Shown piece by piece: positions 1,914 to 61,828 of a stretch of 64,000 nt of DNA. Source of the DNA: an uncultured Pseudomonadales bacterium (GTDB lineage Bacteria; Patescibacteriota; Microgenomatia; UBA1400; Chazhemtobacteraceae); contig CAZUBK010000001.1 of NCBI GenBank assembly GCA_964618725.1, forward strand, positions 2,079 through 66,078, in the 5' to 3' direction. The notes below the pieces were generated by a model. The model was not told the DNA's origin, did not search any database, and saw only the letters and a program-made list of their open reading frames with translations. The position numbers were made by a program, and so were the translations under genes. Position 1 is the first letter of the stretch; every line of letters starts with the position of its first letter.

Positions 1914-2204
1914 TTATTCAACAACAATTTGGATTTTAGTGTCTAAGGCCTTTGCAACCCTGCTCAATAGAGAAATTGATGGTTTGGAATTAAGTCCTTC
2001 AAGACGAGAAATGACTGATTGGTCAGTATCAATTTGCTTTGCGAGCTGGGTTTGGGTGAGATTCTTTTTGAGTCTAGCTTCAATAATCTGGCGGGCTATT
2101 TGCAATTCAACTGCCTGATTTTCATACTCTTTCTTAAAATCAGCATTTTTGAAAAGTTTTTCTTTGAGCTGTTTGACTGTGATGGTTTTATTCTGCGTGT
2201 TCAT
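1914..2204 (-). CDS. higA: XRE-family helix-turn-helix antitoxin (HigA-like)
   Basis: The C-terminal HTH reads LTQTQLAKQIDTDQSVISRLEGLNSKPSISLLSRVAKAL. I shortened the table ORF (1914..2348) to the ATG at 2204..2202. That start overlaps the upstream toxin's stop in an ATGA arrangement. Confidence 0.6.
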   Translation of the reverse strand: MNTQNKTITVKQLKEKLFKNADFKKEYENQAVELQIARQIIEARLKKNLTQTQLAKQIDTDQSVISRLEGLNSKPSISLLSRVAKALDTKIQIVVE

Positions 2205-2518
2205 GTGTATTCTGTAGATCTTTGTAATATTAGTTTCAAATCTTCTTGTCTTATTTTTTGTGATTTTTTGATAATGGCATGAATAATTATTTGTTCTTTT
2301 GCTTTGATATAAATATAGAGCCTGATTTGTGTTGGTCTTAGTTCCCAAATTGGTCCATTGACTTTCTTGAGGTATCGTTCGTCGAGCGAAAAACCATACT
2401 CTTCAAAAAGCTCGATATATTGTAAGGCTTTAGCGGCATCTTTTTGGTTTAGCTTGTTAAGAAACTTATAGATGCGGCTGTCGATTAGTACTTTCATAGT
2501 GTATGACAATATTGACAT
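2201..2518 (-). CDS. higB: RelE/ParE-superfamily toxin of the HigB / phage Gp49-like family
   Basis: 105 aa, with a WELRPT-QIRLYIY core typical of Gp49/HigB-like toxins. The order is toxin first, then antitoxin, with a 4-nt ATGA overlap. Confidence 0.55.
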   Translation of the reverse strand: MSILSYTMKVLIDSRIYKFLNKLNQKDAAKALQYIELFEEYGFSLDERYLKKVNGPIWELRPTQIRLYIYIKAKEQIIIHAIIKKSQKIRQEDLKLILQRSTEYT

Positions 2519-2639
2519 AAAGTCAAGATTGGTAATAAGTCAATTGTACCAAAATTTACCCGAAGTCAAGATCAAGAATATGCTTGTGAAGCAATAGGTA
2601 CGACTTTTGTCATAACAGCTCACTTTACAGACTGTTGTA

Positions 2640-7039: not shown

Positions 7040-7119
7040 TAGGTAAACTAGTAATGGTTATGAGATGTTTCTAATCGTTTTAGAACCTAGGTAGGTAGGG
7101 ATGCTATGATCGATTGTTA

Positions 7120-10753: not shown

Positions 10754-10786
10754 CTTGTTTGGTAAATATTCGGATATGATGGAGGG

Positions 10787-11269
10787 ATGAAGATACTGGG
10801 AATAGATCCGGGGACCGGTCGAGTAGGTTGGGCGGTGTTGGAAGTAGACAAAGGAAAGGAGAGTTTGATTGAGTGTGGTTGTTTTGAGACGACGGTTAAC
10901 TCAAGATTAGGAGAGAGATTAGTCAAAGTATTTGATTTTATGGATGAGATATTAGTGCGATTTAAGCCGGACGAGGTGGCAGTAGAAGAACTTTTTTTTG
11001 CCACTAATGCCAAGACGGCGATGAGTGTAGGGATGTCACGGGGAGTAATCGTCTTGGCGGTAGCCAAGAAAGGGAAGATGGTTTATGACTATCCCCCACT
11101 AAAGGTAAAGATGGCGGTGGCGGGGTATGGGAAGGCGGATAAAAGACAAGTCCAGTTTATGGTAAAGCAGATACTTAAGTTGTCTGAGATTCCAAAGCCC
11201 GATGACGCGGCAGATGCGGTGGCGGTGGCATTAACCCATGCCGCGGGGAGAAAAATGAAGCTATTATGA
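10787..11269 (+). CDS. ruvC: Holliday junction resolvase RuvC
   Basis: MKILGIDPGTGRVGWAVLE, EELFF and PDDAADAVAVALTHA are hallmark RuvC motifs. Confidence 0.85.
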   Translation: MKILGIDPGTGRVGWAVLEVDKGKESLIECGCFETTVNSRLGERLVKVFDFMDEILVRFKPDEVAVEELFFATNAKTAMSVGMSRGVIVLAVAKKGKMVYDYPPLKVKMAVAGYGKADKRQVQFMVKQILKLSEIPKPDDAADAVAVALTHAAGRKMKLL

Positions 11270-11285
11270 GTGTTACAATACTTCC

Positions 11286-11855
11286 GTGATTGCATACTTA
11301 AAAGGGACGTTACTGACAAGTGATAGAGGACGTTTGATCGTTAATTGCGGTGGGGTGGGATACTTGGTTAATGTATCGGTGAAGGATTTGGCAGGCTTAG
11401 AAATAGGAAAAGAAGTAGAGGTCTATGTGCATACCCAAGTAAAAGAAGATATTTTGGCTCTATATGGGTTTCTACGTTTGGAGGATCTAAAATTGTTTGA
11501 GAAACTAATCGGGGTATCCGGAGTAGGTCCAAAGATTGGACTGAGTATTATGACGACGGGCAAGAGTGGGGAAATAGTGGAAGCTTTAAAGTCAGGAGAG
11601 GTAGAGTTTTTTACTAAGGTACCGGGGATTGGCAAGAAGAATGCGCAGCGATTGATTGTGGAGCTACGAAATAAAGTGGGGAGTGAAGTAGATGATATGA
11701 AATTCTTGGACGAAGGAGAGAATGAGGTGGTGGAAGCATTGATTGGTTTGGGATTTGCGAAGAAAGAAGTGATTGGAGTGGTGAAGGAAGCAGACAAAGA
11801 AAAGGCTATCGAGGAACAGATTAAATGGTCACTTAAAAGATTAGGATCAAGATGA
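11286..11855 (+). CDS. ruvA: Holliday junction branch-migration protein RuvA
   Basis: GTG start giving MIAYLKG. The HhH motifs LIGVSGVGPKIGLSIM and VPGIGKKNAQRLIVELR are present. Confidence 0.85.
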   Translation: MIAYLKGTLLTSDRGRLIVNCGGVGYLVNVSVKDLAGLEIGKEVEVYVHTQVKEDILALYGFLRLEDLKLFEKLIGVSGVGPKIGLSIMTTGKSGEIVEALKSGEVEFFTKVPGIGKKNAQRLIVELRNKVGSEVDDMKFLDEGENEVVEALIGLGFAKKEVIGVVKEADKEKAIEEQIKWSLKRLGSR

Positions 11856-12832
11856 GTGAAGTTGATGTATTAGATGAAGTATGGAAAAAGATTAGAGCGT
11901 CTTCTTGGGATGACTTTATTGGACAGGAAAGGGTGAGGGAATCCTTGGCTATTGCGATGGAAGCGGCCAAAGGACGAGGTGAGTCGGTGGAGCATGTTTT
12001 GTTGTATGGACCGCCGGGACTAGGTAAGACGACTTTGGCGCATTTGATTGCCAAAAGCATGGGGGTAAATATAAAGATAACCTCGGGGCCGGCACTGTCA
12101 CGAGCTGGTGATTTGGCTTCGATTTTGAGTGGCTTGGAAGTTGGAGACGTTTTGTTTATTGATGAAATTCATCGCTTAAACAAGGTAGTCGAGGAGACGC
12201 TTTACTCGGCAATGGAAGATTTTGCCTTGGATATGGTGCTAGGAAAAGGGCCGGGGGCACGAGTAATCAGACTAGATCTAAATCGTTTTACTTTGGTGGG
12301 AGCGACAACTAAGGCAGGTAATTTGTCGGCACCTTTAAGGGATCGATTTGGAGTAATTAACCGACTAGCTTTTTATTCGAACGAAGAATTAACAGAGATT
12401 GTACTTCGGGCAGCGAAACGGTTGGAGGTAAATCTTGATTCAACTAGCGCGGCGATGATTGGAGAGCGCGCTCGAAAAACGGCTAGAGTAGCGCTTAAAC
12501 TACTGCGACGGGTTAGGGATTTCGCTCAGGTGAAAAATGGTGGGAAAGTAACGCCGATGATAACAGCGGATGCGCTTAACATGCTGGCAATAGATAAATT
12601 GGGGTTGGATGAGACGGATAGAAAAATACTGGAAACTATCATCAAAAAGCATAATGGTGGTCCAGTGGGGCTTGAGACATTGGCAGCGCTGGTTCATGAG
12701 GATGTAACGACAATTGAGGATGTCCATGAGCCCTTTTTATTGAGTGTGGGGATGCTCAAGCGAACAACTCGAGGCAGAATGGTGACGGGATCAGCCTACA
12801 AACACTTAGGGATACCGCTTGACAAGAGTTAG
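11852..12832 (+). CDS. ruvB: Holliday junction ATP-dependent DNA helicase RuvB
   Basis: Walker A motif LLYGPPGLGKTTLAHLIA and RuvB-specific sensor motifs. It overlaps ruvA by 4 nt. Confidence 0.9.
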   Translation: MSEVDVLDEVWKKIRASSWDDFIGQERVRESLAIAMEAAKGRGESVEHVLLYGPPGLGKTTLAHLIAKSMGVNIKITSGPALSRAGDLASILSGLEVGDVLFIDEIHRLNKVVEETLYSAMEDFALDMVLGKGPGARVIRLDLNRFTLVGATTKAGNLSAPLRDRFGVINRLAFYSNEELTEIVLRAAKRLEVNLDSTSAAMIGERARKTARVALKLLRRVRDFAQVKNGGKVTPMITADALNMLAIDKLGLDETDRKILETIIKKHNGGPVGLETLAALVHEDVTTIEDVHEPFLLSVGMLKRTTRGRMVTGSAYKHLGIPLDKS

Positions 12833-13293: not shown

Positions 13294-13576
13294 GATAGGC
13301 TCCTTTATTTGCGAATCAATGTGCTGGTATCGGTATTAAAGCATGCTTGTCGAGCAAGGGAAAGGGAGGCTAAAAATTGGATACAAGCTTGTAGTATAAG
13401 ATCCTATATGTTCAGGTATTGTTCAGTAGTAATAATTTACTGCTGTATGGGCTATAACTTGACTTATCGTTTTAGAACAAGTTTTCACGGTTCTGTTGAC
13501 TTATCTTGTAATGTAGAGTCAGTAGCAATCCTTGAATTGCTCTGCTAAGATGGTCATGAATTTGAAAAAGTGCGCT

Positions 13577-29203: not shown

Positions 29204-29821
29204 TTAGGCGAATTTGCGAATGACGCCAACGACTTTTCCTTGGACTTTTACCTTAGTAGCAAAGATAGGGCTCATATTGGCATTGGCTGGTTCCAAGCGG
29301 ACACGGGTTTTTTCTTTAAAGAAGCGTTTAAGTGTAGCTAGTCCATTGTCAAGAAGAGCAACAACAATGTCACCATTGTTGGCGTCGCCGACCTCTTCGC
29401 AGACGACATAATCGCCGTCAAAGATGCCGTCTTCGATCATGCTTTCGCCATTGACTTGGAGAACAAAAGCTTTCTTTTTGCCACTGACCATGGTGGGTGA
29501 GACCTTGAGAGTAGCGTCAGGATCAGTGTGGGGTTGAATGGGTTTGCCAGCGGCAATGAAGCCGAGGATGGGAAGCTCAACAACATTGAGTATTTGACCA
29601 AGTTTTTTATCAATTAGTTCGATACCACGGACTGCGCCTTCGTATTTGCGGATGACTTTCTTTTTGATGAGGGCTTGGAGGTGTTCATGAACGGTAGCAA
29701 GAGAAGAGACTCCAAGAGCTTCGGCAATCTCTTGGAGAGTAGGAGAGAAGCCATTACGTTGGATGTATTGGGCAATGAAATCGACTATTTGACGTTGACG
29801 ACGATAGAGTGTGACTGCCAT
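29204..29821 (-). CDS. lexA: LexA repressor (S24 peptidase)
   Basis: N-terminal wHTH (FSPTLQEIAEALGVSSLATVHEHLQAL). C-terminal S24 motifs GESMIEDGIFDGDYVVC and the Ser/Lys dyad context. Confidence 0.85.
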   Translation of the reverse strand: MAVTLYRRQRQIVDFIAQYIQRNGFSPTLQEIAEALGVSSLATVHEHLQALIKKKVIRKYEGAVRGIELIDKKLGQILNVVELPILGFIAAGKPIQPHTDPDATLKVSPTMVSGKKKAFVLQVNGESMIEDGIFDGDYVVCEEVGDANNGDIVVALLDNGLATLKRFFKEKTRVRLEPANANMSPIFATKVKVQGKVVGVIRKFA

Positions 29822-29924
29822 AAGTGTTGAATAGTAAATATTAACCTAACTAAATACCAATCTAGTCCATAAACTACCCGAAGTCAATAGGGCGATTCTA
29901 CTCGAAACACGATACAATGGAGAG

Positions 29925-32030
29925 ATGAAACAGTTTCAGTTAAAGTCAGTATATCGACCTGCAGGAGATCAGCCTCAAGCAATTGGAGGGTTAGTAAAAG
30001 GAATAAAAAAAGGTTTGCCTCACCAGGTACTTTTAGGCGTAACTGGGAGTGGAAAGACTTACAGTTTAGCGAACGTGATTCAAGAAACGCAGTTACCGAC
30101 TTTGATCATTTCTCATAACAAGACATTGGCGGGACAACTTTATCAAGAGTTTCGGGACTTCTTTCCGGAAAACGCAGTATCATATTTTGTTTCCTATTAC
30201 GATTACTATCAGCCTGAAGCATATATACCAAGGACGGATACATATATAGAGAAAGATGCCGATATCAATGAAGAAATAGATAAACTTAGGCTTTCAGCAA
30301 CGGCCAATTTGTTGTCTCGACCAGATTGTATTGTGGTGGCATCGGTGTCGTGTATATATAATCTGGGTTCCCCCCTTGTATACGCAAAAAACATTATAGA
30401 ACTACGATTGGGTCAGGTGATTGATAAAGAAACGATAGTGAGGAGATTAATTGATCTTCAGTACTTAAGAAATCAAGATATTCTGGAGCGAGGTAGCTTC
30501 AGAATCAGAGGAGGTAATCTGGAACTTTGGCCGGCATATGAGGACAAAATATTGAGGATTGCTTTTGAAAGTAGTGAGATCAAGATGGCAGAGTGGTTGG
30601 ATCCAGTAGATTTTGTGGTCTTACCGGACGAAAGTGGAGTGATTGAGCAGACGGGTAGATTCTCAATTTACCCGGCCAAACATTACATTAGCGATCCAAC
30701 GACGAGAGAGTCAGCATTTGCTCAAATTAGAGGAGATCTGAGTCGAAGAGTAATGGAGCTTAGAGGACTGGGGCGAGATTTGGAGGCACATCGGTTAGAT
30801 CAAAAGGTAAATTATGATCTGGAGATGATGACGGCCGTAGGATCGGTTAAAGGGATTGAGAACTACTCAAGATACTTTGATGGTAGGGAAATCGGTGATC
30901 CACCATATACTTTGATTGAATACATGGAGCACAATGCTAAATTGTTTGGCAAGAATGGCTTTTTGACGGTTATTGATGAGAGTCATATTAGTATTCCTCA
31001 AATTACTGGGATGTATCGAGGAGATAGGGCGAGAAAAGAGACCTTGATTGATTATGGTTTTAGGTTACCGAGTGCTTTGGATAACCGACCACTGACATAT
31101 ACCGAGTTTGCCCAAAGGACACCGCAGGTAATCTATACTTCGGCGACGCCGGGTGATTACGAGTTAAGCCTAGCGAAACAAGCTGGAGCGGCGAAAAAGA
31201 TGCTGGGTGTCGTTGAGCAATTAGTCAGACCAACAGGGTTATTAGATCCTGAGATTTTTGTGCGTCCAATTGAAGGTCAGGTGACTGATTTAATGAAGGA
31301 GATCATTATTCGTAAGCAAAAAGGAGAGAGGGTCTTGGTGACGACACTGACTAAAAAGATGTCTGAAGAGTTGGCCGAGTATTTGGCCGATCCGGAAAAA
31401 GTGGAGGAACGAACCAAGCAGAAGTTAGACGAGCCAATCAAGGTGACATATCTACATGCTGACGTAGAGACACTAGATCGAGCCGATATTCTCGACAGCT
31501 TAAGATTGGGGGAAGTTGACGTAGTGGTGGGAATAAATCTTTTAAGAGAAGGTCTAGATCTACCGGAAGTATCACTGGTGGCGATTTTGGATGCAGACAA
31601 GGAGGGATTCCTCCGGTCTCGGGTTTCGTTGATTCAGATCATGGGACGGGCGGCTAGACATGAGAATGGAAAAGTAATTCTTTATGCGGATAAAGAAACT
31701 GATTCTATGAGGGCGGCAATTGACGAAGTGAAAAGAAGACGAGAAAGACAGCAGGAATACAACTATAAACACGGTATAACGCCGATGAGTATTAACAAGC
31801 CGATTAGGGAGAAGCTTTTGAAGCGAGAAAAAAAGGAAGACAATCAGAGAATGAAAGAATTCAAGGAGTTTGGTTGGAGTACTCCGGAAGAAATCGATCC
31901 AGAAGCTCTAACACCGCAGGATAAGGAGAAAATGGTCAAGAAACTGAAAAAAATGATGAATCAAGCGGCCAAGGATTGGGAATTTGAGAAGGCGGCTCAA
32001 TACCGGGATGTAATAGAGAAGTTATCTTAA
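29925..32030 (+). CDS. uvrB: Excinuclease ABC subunit B
   Basis: LLGVTGSGKT Walker A, a helicase domain and the C-terminal UVR motif (EKAAQYRDVIEKL). Confidence 0.9.
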   Translation: MKQFQLKSVYRPAGDQPQAIGGLVKGIKKGLPHQVLLGVTGSGKTYSLANVIQETQLPTLIISHNKTLAGQLYQEFRDFFPENAVSYFVSYYDYYQPEAYIPRTDTYIEKDADINEEIDKLRLSATANLLSRPDCIVVASVSCIYNLGSPLVYAKNIIELRLGQVIDKETIVRRLIDLQYLRNQDILERGSFRIRGGNLELWPAYEDKILRIAFESSEIKMAEWLDPVDFVVLPDESGVIEQTGRFSIYPAKHYISDPTTRESAFAQIRGDLSRRVMELRGLGRDLEAHRLDQKVNYDLEMMTAVGSVKGIENYSRYFDGREIGDPPYTLIEYMEHNAKLFGKNGFLTVIDESHISIPQITGMYRGDRARKETLIDYGFRLPSALDNRPLTYTEFAQRTPQVIYTSATPGDYELSLAKQAGAAKKMLGVVEQLVRPTGLLDPEIFVRPIEGQVTDLMKEIIIRKQKGERVLVTTLTKKMSEELAEYLADPEKVEERTKQKLDEPIKVTYLHADVETLDRADILDSLRLGEVDVVVGINLLREGLDLPEVSLVAILDADKEGFLRSRVSLIQIMGRAARHENGKVILYADKETDSMRAAIDEVKRRRERQQEYNYKHGITPMSINKPIREKLLKREKKEDNQRMKEFKEFGWSTPEEIDPEALTPQDKEKMVKKLKKMMNQAAKDWEFEKAAQYRDVIEKLS

Positions 32031-32052: not shown

Positions 32053-32703
32053 TTATTTGGCGAGAACAAGGAACTGACCTTCGGTATCTTCGGCATAAGA
32101 CATACGTGTATTAACACTCCCGTGACGACGGATGGAGTGTAGAGCATCGTCAAGCGACTCGTGCTCATGAAGTGTTCCCAGTATTTTAGTTATTCTTCTC
32201 TCGATTCGTTGTAATGCCTCACCTTCATCACCTAATTGTTCATCTATTCGTGTTAATTCGTTAGATTCGGTTTCAAGTACGATTACTATTTTTGTTTTTG
32301 GCCCGGACAGAAGCTTTATGTCTTCAAGCATGGTATTACGTTTAGAGAGAATATCTCGTGGATTGGGGGCGATAACGGTAATAATATCGGGGTGATTGTT
32401 TGGAGAAATGTTGCCAATTAGATCACCCGATTGTGCGTCTACTGAGTAATATATTCCTTTGGAATCATTGAGGCCTGTTTTGACCAAACCAGGAGCCTCT
32501 GTGGGATCAATATTAAAAACAGTGTCAGATTCTTCGGTGGCAAAGGGAGAACGTCTATCTGAACCTAAATTAAAAACAATTACGCCGTTGGGTCGATTAC
32601 TTCTGGCGATATTGATTAGGTGATCAATATCCTTTGGTGTAACTTCTGTTGCTTCTTTAGATGATATGGATCCTGTTCTCTCGAAAATTGTCTCATCGCT
32701 CAT
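32053..32703 (-). CDS. Hypothetical protein (216 aa)
   Basis: The table ORF (to 32928) would overlap the uvrA start. The internal ATG at 32703 (MSDETIFERTG...) avoids that overlap. No recognisable motifs. Confidence 0.35.
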   Translation of the reverse strand: MSDETIFERTGSISSKEATEVTPKDIDHLINIARSNRPNGVIVFNLGSDRRSPFATEESDTVFNIDPTEAPGLVKTGLNDSKGIYYSVDAQSGDLIGNISPNNHPDIITVIAPNPRDILSKRNTMLEDIKLLSGPKTKIVIVLETESNELTRIDEQLGDEGEALQRIERRITKILGTLHEHESLDDALHSIRRHGSVNTRMSYAEDTEGQFLVLAK

Positions 32704-32770
32704 GAAGAAGAATATAGCATAAATCCTTACTTGCACATGTTCGGGTAAATCTCTGGTACAATGTAGTGTT

Positions 32771-40737: not shown

Positions 40738-41181
40738 CTAGGTACGGAATTTGTTGGAGCGTTTGACGACCTTGGCAACGTAGACAATCTCGTGAACTTG
40801 GCCAGAATCGTCCTCAATTTGATTGGTGGCTGCGTTTTGGACGTATTGTTGGAGATAAACAGAGAGAGTATCCTGGAGGTGTTTGAGTTCTCCTTTGATC
40901 TCTTTGACTTTGTCGTTAATAGAGGCAGTTTCAGTAGTACTAAGTAAATCTTTCTTAATTTGATTTTTCTTGCCATTGACTTCTTTGACTTCAACAAGAG
41001 CTTGTTTGTATTCGGGGCTATGTTCCAAGATGTTATCGAGCATCTCTTTGTGTTTGTTGTAGGTTTCTTTATGACGTTCGATTTTCGAGAGATAACTCAA
41101 AATTAGACCTTCTAGATTGACTAGGTCTTGTGCAGACAGGGGCTTACTTAGGTCTATCGTTGTGTCATTACTTTGATCCAT
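40738..41181 (-). CDS. Hypothetical coiled-coil protein
   Basis: 147 aa, charged and helical. It sits in a low-GC islet next to the AbiEii gene. Confidence 0.3.
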   Translation of the reverse strand: MDQSNDTTIDLSKPLSAQDLVNLEGLILSYLSKIERHKETYNKHKEMLDNILEHSPEYKQALVEVKEVNGKKNQIKKDLLSTTETASINDKVKEIKGELKHLQDTLSVYLQQYVQNAATNQIEDDSGQVHEIVYVAKVVKRSNKFRT

Positions 41182-41247: not shown

Positions 41248-41913
41248 TTATGAAAAGATTTGCTTATTGAGGTTCTTGGCTTCGTCTAGGAAAAAGGATT
41301 GCCAGTCTGCTTCTTTAAGCTCTATGGTGAGATTAGGATAATCTTTAAGTTCAATACTTTGGAAAAATTGAGTTCCTAGTTGTAGAGGATCAATATGCCA
41401 ATCAAATTTTGTTCTTGCCTGTTGGACTATTTGTTGAATTGTCCAATTGTACTTTTGACAAAGCATATAAAGATCCATGAAGTCACGACTGCGAGGTTTT
41501 TGATAAATGGTAAATAACTTGTTAGTGGCAATATCTAGAGGAGAATCGATCTGTGTTTTTTGATAGAAATTAGATTTGTCTATTTGAGGAAAGGGGAAGT
41601 AAGTAAATTCTGTTTTAAGTATGGAATTTTCAAATCTCAAAAAAATTAGGTTACGATTAAAGCTAGAATTGATATCTAGTTGCTTGTAGTTGAGTTTATT
41701 TTTGATAGATTTCAGGAAAGTTATGACATATGGAAGCTCTACTTCTTGTTCTGAGAAGAAGTCGAGATCCTCGGACATACGATAAGGGATATAGAAGCCA
41801 GCTAAGGCAGTGCCTCCGGAGAGATAGAAATCTTTAACTAAGTTTGAGGCAGAAAAGAGATTTAGGAAATCTGCTTGAGTCTTGGTTATTATAGAAGTAG
41901 GATGAAGTTTCAT
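41248..41913 (-). CDS. AbiEii/DUF1814-family nucleotidyltransferase (type IV toxin / abortive-infection family)
   Basis: FYLSGGTALAGFYIPYRMSEDLDFF matches the AbiEii signature (GGTAL ... R.S.DlDff). The local GC is low, about 33%. Confidence 0.6.
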   Translation of the reverse strand: MKLHPTSIITKTQADFLNLFSASNLVKDFYLSGGTALAGFYIPYRMSEDLDFFSEQEVELPYVITFLKSIKNKLNYKQLDINSSFNRNLIFLRFENSILKTEFTYFPFPQIDKSNFYQKTQIDSPLDIATNKLFTIYQKPRSRDFMDLYMLCQKYNWTIQQIVQQARTKFDWHIDPLQLGTQFFQSIELKDYPNLTIELKEADWQSFFLDEAKNLNKQIFS

Positions 41914-52114: not shown

Positions 52115-52160
52115 GGCCTACCAGTGGTAAAATATACTTGTCGAAGTTATTCGACGGTTT

Positions 52161-56547: not shown

Positions 56548-56595
56548 GGAGCTGGTGACCGTAATTGGCTCGAACCTAAGAGATTTGGTAACTCC
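56548..56595. repeat. Copy 1 of a 48-nt direct repeat (GGAGCTGGTGACCGTAATTGGCTCGAACCTAAGAGATTTGGTAACTCC)
   Basis: 36 of 48 nt identical to copy 2 at 57192-57239 with no gaps. Both copies begin GGAG and end CTCC. The two copies flank the ybaK-like gene. Confidence 0.5.
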
Positions 56596-56654
56596 AGATT
56601 TGACTCTTCAGTTAAATGCTTTGAAAGCACATATTAATATCAAAAGTTTCCGAT

Positions 56655-57152
56655 TTACTGATTAAAGTTGGCAACTTCTTCAACTTTATTTTCGAGCGAA
56701 TCAAATATTTTCTTTAAATCAGATCCTTTAGCTTGCACTGTTCTAGTTGGAACAACCGGACTGAACAACATCCATTCTTGTTCATAAATCTTTGGATCAA
56801 TATAGATGTCATATTGGACATTGAACCCGAATGGATATGCACAACCTGGTTTGGCACCAAAGTATTCATTTAATTCTTCAGGTGTAGAGAGTCTCACTTT
56901 ATTTACGTCTAACTTTTCTTTAATTGCATCAAAATTTACCTTTTTACCCTGAAGGGTAATATAAACAATAAACCTGTCTCCAGCTTTTAGAACCATACAT
57001 TTCATCTCTGTTCCAAAAAAACCGGTTTCTTTTTGTACAGCTTCAAGTTCTTCCCATGTTAAAGCTTCTCTGTGAGAAAATAATTTATATTCAACTTGAT
57101 TGCTATCAAGGAGACTGATTAATTTTTCGTAGATAATATTTGGATCAATCAT
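56655..57152 (-). CDS. YbaK/ProX-like aminoacyl-tRNA trans-editing deacylase
   Basis: 165 aa. The K-x-M-V-L-K and GCAYPFG motifs resemble the YbaK/EbsC deacylase core. Confidence 0.5.
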   Translation of the reverse strand: MIDPNIIYEKLISLLDSNQVEYKLFSHREALTWEELEAVQKETGFFGTEMKCMVLKAGDRFIVYITLQGKKVNFDAIKEKLDVNKVRLSTPEELNEYFGAKPGCAYPFGFNVQYDIYIDPKIYEQEWMLFSPVVPTRTVQAKGSDLKKIFDSLENKVEEVANFNQ

Positions 57153-57191: not shown

Positions 57192-57239
57192 TGGAGCTGG
57201 TAACGATAATGTGCTCGAACCTATACGACCTTTTAACTC
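57192..57239. repeat. Copy 2 of the 48-nt direct repeat (GGAGCTGGTAACGATAATGTGCTCGAACCTATACGACCTTTTAACTCC)
   Basis: See copy 1. This copy lies in the 5' leader of the ybaK-like gene. Confidence 0.5.
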
Positions 57240-57340
57240 CGAAACTGATTTTACAACTCAAGGAACTCAAACGCCATATGGGTATCCTTGATTTCACAAA
57301 ACCATATATCAAAAAACCACCTAAAAGGTAATATACGTTA

Positions 57341-61175: not shown

Positions 61176-61251
61176 TGGTGCCAAGCTGAGGATTCGAACC
61201 TCAATCTGATGATTTTCAGTCATCCGCCGTGACCATCTTGGCTAGCTTGGC
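61176..61251 (-). tRNA. tRNA-Phe (anticodon GAA), CCA encoded
   Basis: Reverse complement GCCAAGCTAGCC ... GGATGACTGAAAATCATC ... GAGGTTCGAATCCTCAGCTTGGCACCA. Anticodon loop CTGAAAA, T-arm TGAGG-TTCGAAT-CCTCA. Confidence 0.85.
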
Positions 61252-61670
61252 ATGTTTTTGTGAGTGCGAATTCTATGACAATTAGCACAAACTATATCAC
61301 ATTTGTCTATTTCTTTTTTGATTTTTTCTATTGAAAAATTCCAATGAACCATGGCTGCAACATCATTTATTTTGTCCTTTGGATCTCGATGATCTAGATC
61401 CATCACATAAGGTGGATATTTCTTGCCACAGTCCATACAGGGTTTATCTTTGTACTTAATCAAGAACTGTCGTTTGATGGCTACTCCTTTTCTTGTTCGC
61501 ATCATGGTCAATTTTTTCAAATGATCGATATTTTGGCGGTAATAGGTTTTACCCCTTTCTTTCATGCATTGTTTGCATTTCTCGTAGGTTGTGCCAGCTT
61601 TGGGGCCAGTTTTTCGTTTGTAAAACTGTGATAGTTCTTTTGGAGTGTTACATTTCGGGCAGTATTTCAT
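61242..61670 (-). CDS. HNH endonuclease (Zn-finger HNH, homing-endonuclease-like). Its 3' end overlaps the first 10 nt of tRNA-Phe.
   Basis: CPKCN ... CMDCG ... DLDHRDP ... CANCHRIRTH are HNH hallmarks. I used the ATG at 61670 (MKYCPKC...); the table ORF starts at a TTG at 61706. Confidence 0.6.
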   Translation of the reverse strand: MKYCPKCNTPKELSQFYKRKTGPKAGTTYEKCKQCMKERGKTYYRQNIDHLKKLTMMRTRKGVAIKRQFLIKYKDKPCMDCGKKYPPYVMDLDHRDPKDKINDVAAMVHWNFSIEKIKKEIDKCDIVCANCHRIRTHKNMPS

Positions 61671-61828
61671 AGTAATTAGTATGAAAAAAACCCGAAGTAA
61701 AGTCAAATTTAAGGCGAATCTTTAAAGGTGCAAACGAAACTCAGTCAGAGTATATTTTACCACGACTGACAGAGAGAGTAGTATATGGCTTAAAGTACAT
61801 TAACAAACTGGTAAAGAGAAGGTTAATA

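Follow-up and report, generated by a model that had tools for sequence, protein, structure and literature searches.

A direct-repeat candidate SOS box at lexA, ruvCAB and higBA in a Collierbacteria-like bacterium of the Patescibacteria

Recognition of direct repeats by the SOS repressor LexA has evolved several times, and a 2017 study of the SOS response in Patescibacteria is cited among the cases in PMC7739468. The patescibacterial LexA motif (Sanchez-Osuna, Barbe & Erill 2017, Environ Microbiol 19:3465) comes from the same superphylum as the DNA analysed here, belongs to the same repressor family and has, as summarised in PMC7739468, the same direct-repeat structure. Another described system, the higBA(C) operon of Caulobacter crescentus, is SOS-inducible and combines a LexA box with HigA binding at one promoter (bioRxiv 10.1101/2020.07.22.216945). 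The stretch of DNA analysed here, hereafter the window, is 64 kb long and has a GC content of 43%. An earlier note had proposed that a LexA operator is shared by the lexA, higBA, uvrA and HNH endonuclease genes of the window, and had regarded the LexA operator of this lineage as undefined. The latter statement is probably outdated in view of the 2017 patescibacterial SOS paper cited in PMC7739468. The element described below probably corresponds to the direct-repeat LexA box that this lineage of work has reported for Patescibacteria, although its consensus, TTYGG-N6-TWYGS, may represent a variant that is not identical to the published motif. Judged from sequence comparison, we put at roughly 0.75 the probability that the element functions as an SOS box, bound as operator by the LexA repressor of a Collierbacteria-like bacterium (Microgenomates, Patescibacteria).

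The lexA gene of the window (29204-29821, minus strand) encodes a wHTH domain (PF01726) and an S24 peptidase domain (PF00717), both identified with Pfam. Homologues of its product with 75-92% identity are annotated as Candidatus Collierbacteria, Microgenomates or Patescibacteria. The protein matches solved LexA structures over its full length. It has an Ala-Gly site for cleavage (IAAG|KP) and a Ser/Lys dyad (serine in GESM, lysine in LKRF), and the predicted product is a complete, cleavable repressor. The promoter scan places the lexA promoter at 29859-29887 (minus strand) as TTGACT-17 nt-TAGATT, with the candidate LexA operator (29865-29882, minus strand; 15.4 bits) inside the spacer. This operator consists of the half-site TTCGG (29882-29878), an N6 of GTAGTT and the half-site TATGG (29871-29867), and the complete promoter reads TTGAC-TTCGG-GTAGTT-TATGG-AC-TAGATT. 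In the lexA promoters of the closest relatives (LexA 81-92% identical), TTGACTTCGGGT is retained and the second half-site varies, being TTTGC, TTATG or TTGGG.

The element was defined by comparison of lexA upstream regions from 80 lexA loci of reference genomes, among which the loci with a LexA identity of at least 55% form the repeat-bearing clade. Gibbs sampling of the upstream regions of relatives yielded the consensus T-T-Y-G-G-N6-T-W-Y-G-S, a direct repeat of two 5-bp half-sites with a period of 11 bp; the half-sites may extend to approximately TTCGGKWW. The scoring matrix shows the same pattern and was built from 66 unique sites in the lexA promoters of relatives, with the window excluded; derived in this way, it proves a motif of lexA promoters and not the identity of the binder. 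At least one site scoring 10 bits or more is present in 70 of the 72 lexA upstream regions of this clade, and 39 of the 72 contain two or three sites. Spacing is strict, with 83 matches in lexA promoters for N6, 12 for N5, one for N7 and none for N8. The start-to-start distances between neighbouring sites in the lexA promoters of relatives cluster at 11, 20 and 31-32 bp, and the sites would therefore lie on one face of the helix. In the single-site lexA promoters of relatives, the repeat is placed exactly in the gap between the -35 and -10 hexamers, as illustrated by TTGACA-TTTGG-TATTTA-TTCGG-T-TAGATT in one genome (L057) and TTGAC-TTCGG-GTTCTT-TTGGG-T-TACAAT in another (L001). Across genomes the half-sites are kept, while the N6 and the flanks are variable. 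The conserved half-sites, the strict spacing and the helically phased copies argue for selection on a protein-binding site.

This definition changes the unit that had been recognized earlier. The earlier note had described the element as TTGACT-TTCGGGTA, but the actual unit is the direct repeat TTYGG-N6-TWYGS. The 13-mer TTGACTTCGGGTA, which had been reported as identical upstream of higB and lexA, does occur exactly at both places (2557-2569 and 29875-29887, both minus strand) and constitutes the -35 hexamer (TTGAC/T) fused to the first half-site of the repeat. These are its two occurrences, and when up to two mismatches are allowed, five matches are found in the window against 1.3 expected. 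The shorter TTCGGGTA occurs exactly six times in the window, three of these in the intergenic 7.3%. A single common 13-mer is weak evidence when taken alone. The intergenic segments of the window have 13-mers in common that stem from three separate elements, where 0.48 such 13-mers would be expected. The strong support for the candidate element is comparative. Another recurring 13-mer, ATCGTTTTAGAAC, is found exactly at 7074-7086 and 13466-13478 (both plus strand), with one copy in the leader of a peptidase-M3 gene and the other in that of a DUF192 gene (0.11 expected), and may be the site of another regulator.

The scan with the window-free matrix covered the 64-kb window and approximately 14 kb around lexA in each relative. 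Three sites in the window reach 15 bits or more, compared with 0.58 expected from dinucleotide shuffles: those of ruvC (17.8 bits), lexA (15.4 bits) and higB (15.3 bits). All three fall in the intergenic 7.3% of the window, and each is correctly oriented and at most 50 nt from a start codon. The earlier note had offered as a fallback that the element might be a generic, lineage-specific promoter or spacer consensus, for which its location within sigma-70-like promoters, overlapping the -35 hexamer, could be cited. Yet the motif stands upstream of just 3 of the 58 window genes, other good promoters in the window are without it, and the best upstream scores have medians of about -1.6 to -1.9 bits (-1.9 over the 58 window genes). 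Furthermore, a score of 12.5 bits is reached by 4 of 741 non-lexA genes of the relatives, and three of these four are uvrB genes divergent from lexA. A generic consensus, which by the criterion of the earlier note would stand upstream of most genes, is thus contradicted by the distribution of the motif and seems highly improbable. Two further candidates were tried and rejected. A sigma-54 promoter has a -24 GG and a -12 TGC (GG-N8-TTGC) and no separate -35 and -10 hexamers, whereas the element has GG-N6/7-TT(Y)G with clear flanking TTGACA and TAnnnT. An RNA element was ruled out as well, since the Rfam matches are tRNAs only and transcription is predicted to start downstream of the window sites.

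The best site in the window, which was missing from the set of the earlier note, precedes the ruvC-ruvA-ruvB operon (10787-12832, plus strand; identified with Pfam). This candidate operator (10758-10775, plus strand; 17.8 bits) reads TTTGG-TAAATA-TTCGG and is situated in a gap of 33 nt. It is followed by a -10-like TATGAT (10775-10780) and, 6 nt later, by the ruvC ATG (10787), a geometry that suggests a leaderless transcript, as for several of the lexA promoters in relatives. The three closer ruvC relatives have not kept the site, the corresponding scores being 10.8 (a partial site), -2.0 and -3.7 bits. A metagenome scan with RuvC returned genes with 43-59% identity from unrelated taxa (GC 26-67%), none with the motif, and is uninformative on this clade.

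The uvrB gene (29925-32030, plus strand; Pfam) is divergent from lexA, and the two are separated by an intergenic region of 103 nt, in which the candidate lexA operator occupies the positions 29-46 nt before the uvrB -10 hexamer TACAAT (29914-29919). A degenerate second site, TTCGAGTAGAATCGCCC, with N5 spacing (29890-29906, minus strand) covers the uvrB promoter region; it is weak and reaches 10.0 bits with the N5-gapped matrix only. The spacing statistics of the lexA promoters argue against N5 as a means of rescuing this second site. Whether uvrB would be controlled through the region it has in common with lexA is uncertain from the sequence, and in the uvrB and uvrA upstream regions of the 80 lexA loci the motif is sporadic.

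The third site belongs to a toxin-antitoxin operon. The toxin gene higB (2201-2497, minus strand) encodes a Gp49/RelE-like protein of 98 aa (PF05973, E=8e-14); its start is assigned to the ATG at 2497 because every HigB homologue is 98 aa long. It overlaps by 4 nt with the antitoxin gene higA (1914-2204, minus strand), which encodes an HTH_3 protein of 96 aa (PF01381, E=5e-11). The candidate LexA operator of the higBA promoter (2547-2564, minus strand) comprises TTCGG (2564-2560), an N6 of GTAAAT and TTTGG (2553-2549), and scores 15.3 bits with the window-free matrix. It would be contained in a distal promoter, P1 (2543-2569, minus strand), with a -35 hexamer TTGACT (2569-2564), a spacer of 15 nt holding the operator and a TG-extended -10 element TGgTACAAT (2551-2543). 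The architecture of P1 agrees with that of the lexA promoters of relatives, but its spacer is short, for which reason it is absent from the output of the promoter scan. The scan gives a proximal TTGACT-17-TACACT at higB instead, which abuts the start codon, such that a transcript beginning from it would lack the ATG. Immediately before the higB start codon lies the inverted repeat TATGACAATATTGACATA (2502-2519), a candidate HigA operator. Toxin-first in its gene order, the higBA operon of the window thus has both a LexA-type site and a putative antitoxin palindrome in its promoter.

The HigB family is small, comprising 45 clusters, and is restricted to Microgenomates. HigB homologues with 62-84% identity occur in three neighbourhoods, namely after RNase J (L170-L173), elsewhere (L165) and, in the window, after an FtsJ-type methyltransferase gene. 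All three neighbourhoods have two conserved blocks, with diverged sequence between them. The distal block, TTGACTTCGG(G)TA-N-TTTGGTA, scores 14.9-17.5 bits in L165 and L170-L173. The proximal block, TTGACAttATGaCAAatTTaTCATA, abuts the ATG and is kept in each of the five higBA loci, even in L166, where the distal element is missing; it contains the palindrome, which reads TGATAAATTTATCA in L173 and TATGACAATATTGACATA in the window. The variant represented by L166-L169 has the proximal block only and starts 28 nt after the preceding gene. We infer that the distal block is a promoter whose spacer contains a LexA operator, and that the proximal palindrome is a HigA operator. It is conceivable, albeit tentative and slightly less probable than the contrary, that the direct-repeat LexA operator belongs integrally to a higBA cassette specific to Microgenomates, in which the distal LexA-controlled promoter and the proximal HigA palindrome travel together between genomic contexts. 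HigA itself was rejected as the binder of the repeat: the HigB family is tiny (45 clusters), whereas the motif is present at lexA in 70 of 72 loci. Elsewhere in the window, a nucleotidyltransferase toxin gene of the AbiEii type (type IV toxin-antitoxin; 41248-41913, minus strand) with a small upstream ORF (40738-41181) is without a LexA-type site; by its predicted product, this is a second toxin-antitoxin-like locus in the window.

The gene identities on which the earlier proposal was built hold for higB, higA, lexA, uvrB and uvrA with Pfam and for the HNH gene with phrog_2255; uvrC was identified in the window by Pfam alongside lexA, uvrB and uvrA. The proposal of a LexA operator at four loci stands for lexA and higBA (15.4 and 15.3 bits) and fails for uvrA, where the spacing is N7, and for HNH, where one half-site is present. 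The uvrA leader element (32740-32762, plus strand) has a perfect half-site TTCGG(GTA), an N7, TCTGG and then a -10 hexamer TACAAT. The likeness of the higB and uvrA leaders was correctly recognized: TTCGGGTAAAT-N3-GGTACAAT occurs upstream of higB and TTCGGGTAAAT-N4-GGTACAAT in the uvrA leader. The N6 matrix gives the uvrA element 5.3 bits and the N7-gapped matrix 11.3 bits, and as a canonical operator the element is ruled out by its off-register N7, a spacing with one match in lexA promoters compared with 83 for N6. In two relatives (L001 and L177) uvrA adjoins uvrB directly, while in the window a gene is inserted between the two and uvrA is preceded by a promoter of its own. The inserted ORF between uvrB and uvrA (32053-32703, minus strand; 216 aa) has no Pfam or PHROG match.

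These leaders bear on the idea that the lexA, higBA and uvrA promoters resemble each other through shared ancestry or through recombination of promoter cassettes, without any operator function. The 11 and 8 identical bases that the higB and uvrA leaders have in common would fit such an origin, as would the gain of a promoter by uvrA after the insertion between uvrB and uvrA (compared with L001 and L177) and the mobile nature of the higBA cassette. Copied cassettes do not account for half-sites that are conserved across genomes while the N6 and flanks vary, nor for the strict spacing and the helically phased multiple sites, and this explanation is accordingly rated as quite improbable, though less so than a generic consensus.

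The HNH endonuclease gene (61242-61670, minus strand) has no significant Pfam match and corresponds to phrog_2255 in PHROG (E=5e-35). Its leader does carry TTGACTTTACTTCGGGT, as the earlier note had stated, at 61690-61706 (minus strand). The leader element (61679-61696, minus strand) reads TTCGG-N6-TTCAT, contains a single half-site and is shifted in register by 4 nt relative to the -35 hexamer. With one half-site and a score of 12.6 bits, the level of chance matches inside coding sequence, it is not supported as an operator. The uvrA and HNH genes, having an off-register copy or a half-site, are probably unregulated or weakly regulated. The HNH ORF precedes the genes for tRNA-Phe and tRNA-Gly, and the 15-mer GTGGTAAAATATACT, which resembles a TG-extended -10 element, is found both upstream of tRNA-Gln (52124-52138, plus strand) and upstream of the HNH ORF (61749-61763, minus strand). 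The HNH gene therefore appears to be located between a tRNA-type promoter and its tRNA genes. In another part of the window, a direct repeat of approximately 60 nt (56548-56600 and 57193-57250; GGAGCTGGTRAC..GCTCGAACCTA..TAACTCC, about 75% identical) flanks a gene with a tRNA_edit domain (56655-57152); it resembles the 3' half of a tRNA and could be an integration scar.

The presence of the motif at lexA itself is a signature of autoregulation and points indirectly to LexA as the binder. In addition, the repeat is found at loci whose LexA has the recognition helix VSSLATVHEHLQAL or IHSPATVHEHV, while at five loci with the helix HRSNSTVHTIIRSL (LexA of about 52% identity) the lexA promoters contain instead a partly palindromic motif of the TTTCGTATAAA type. 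Two classes of recognition helix thus correspond to two classes of motif, a correspondence that is qualitative, with n=5 for the second class. In these five loci (L076-L080, Levybacteria-like and others), TTTCGTATAAA or the palindrome CGTATAAATTATACA lies about 100 nt upstream of lexA, with the TTCG core in common.

The binder could instead be another factor that recognizes direct repeats, such as an OmpR/PhoB-type response regulator, which would also control lexA. Direct repeats with a period of 11 bp are generally known to be typical of OmpR-family regulators, and at two loci the repeat is found just before the -10 hexamer of an OmpR-type regulator gene adjacent to lexA (L031, 8010-8027, minus strand, 19.4 bits; L051, 9269-9286, minus strand, 13.0 bits). 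However, a response regulator is adjacent in these 2 of the 80 loci only, the motif occurs at lexA in 70 of 72 and changes with the LexA recognition helix, and direct-repeat motifs have precedent for LexA itself (PMC7739468). We consider a regulator of this type unlikely as the binder, if somewhat less so than a descent of promoter cassettes, and LexA remains the favoured candidate. A PduO-type cobalamin adenosyltransferase gene near lexA also has the repeat upstream in two unrelated relatives (L017, 9250-9267, minus strand, N6; L061, 8311-8327, minus strand, N7), and may or may not be a member of the regulon.

The candidate operator overlaps the predicted core promoter, with placement in the spacer at lexA, at higB and in the relatives. 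A LexA dimer bound to the direct repeat in the promoter spacer would thus occlude RNA polymerase. Upon DNA damage, RecA-stimulated self-cleavage of LexA would derepress lexA, higBA and ruvCAB, and perhaps uvrB too, and HigA, presumably bound to the palindrome beside the higB start codon, would add a second layer of control at higBA. Within the 64 kb of the window and approximately 14 kb per relative, the top three window sites belong to ruvCAB, lexA(/uvrB) and higBA, with uvrA or uvrB sites in some relatives. This provides a concrete candidate operator, with defined half-sites, spacing and promoter position, for the SOS repressor of a bacterium that is ultra-small and uncultivated. It also sets the genes of the region that are likely damage-inducible (lexA, ruvCAB and higBA) apart from the look-alikes at uvrA and HNH. 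That higBA has a candidate SOS operator of its own suggests selection for damage-induced growth arrest even in minimal genomes. If the operator does travel with the higBA cassette, damage-triggered toxin expression would be a recurrent arm of a very small SOS regulon in bacteria with reduced genomes.

The type of regulation proposed here is already known, both for the direct-repeat LexA box and for LexA-controlled higBA; what is new is this instance. The box of the Alphaproteobacteria, GTTC-N7-GTTC (PMC8565304), is likewise a direct repeat with a period of 11 bp and is bound by a canonical LexA, and the window element, when read one base to the right as TTCG-N7-TTCG, has the same geometry. The two differ in phylum and in the letters of the half-site, which is TTYGG here, and the patescibacterial repeat is placed in the spacer between -35 and -10, often in two or three phased copies. 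The LexA (Cheo) box of Gram-positive bacteria and Actinobacteria, CGAAC-N4-GTTCG, has the TTCG/CGAA core in common with the window element, but is an inverted repeat with another spacing, unlike the direct repeat of the window. GAAC-N4-GTTC is absent at the lexA gene of the window, while the LexA relatives with about 52% identity (L076-L080) retain palindromic sites of the TTCGTATA type. As in Caulobacter, the higBA operon of the window is toxin-first and has LexA-type and antitoxin-type sites in its promoter, with dual control proposed here from the sequence; unlike higBA(C), it is without higC, and its HigB family is restricted to Microgenomates. A toxin-antitoxin module with its own candidate SOS operator across Collierbacteria-like genomes would therefore parallel the higBA of Caulobacter.
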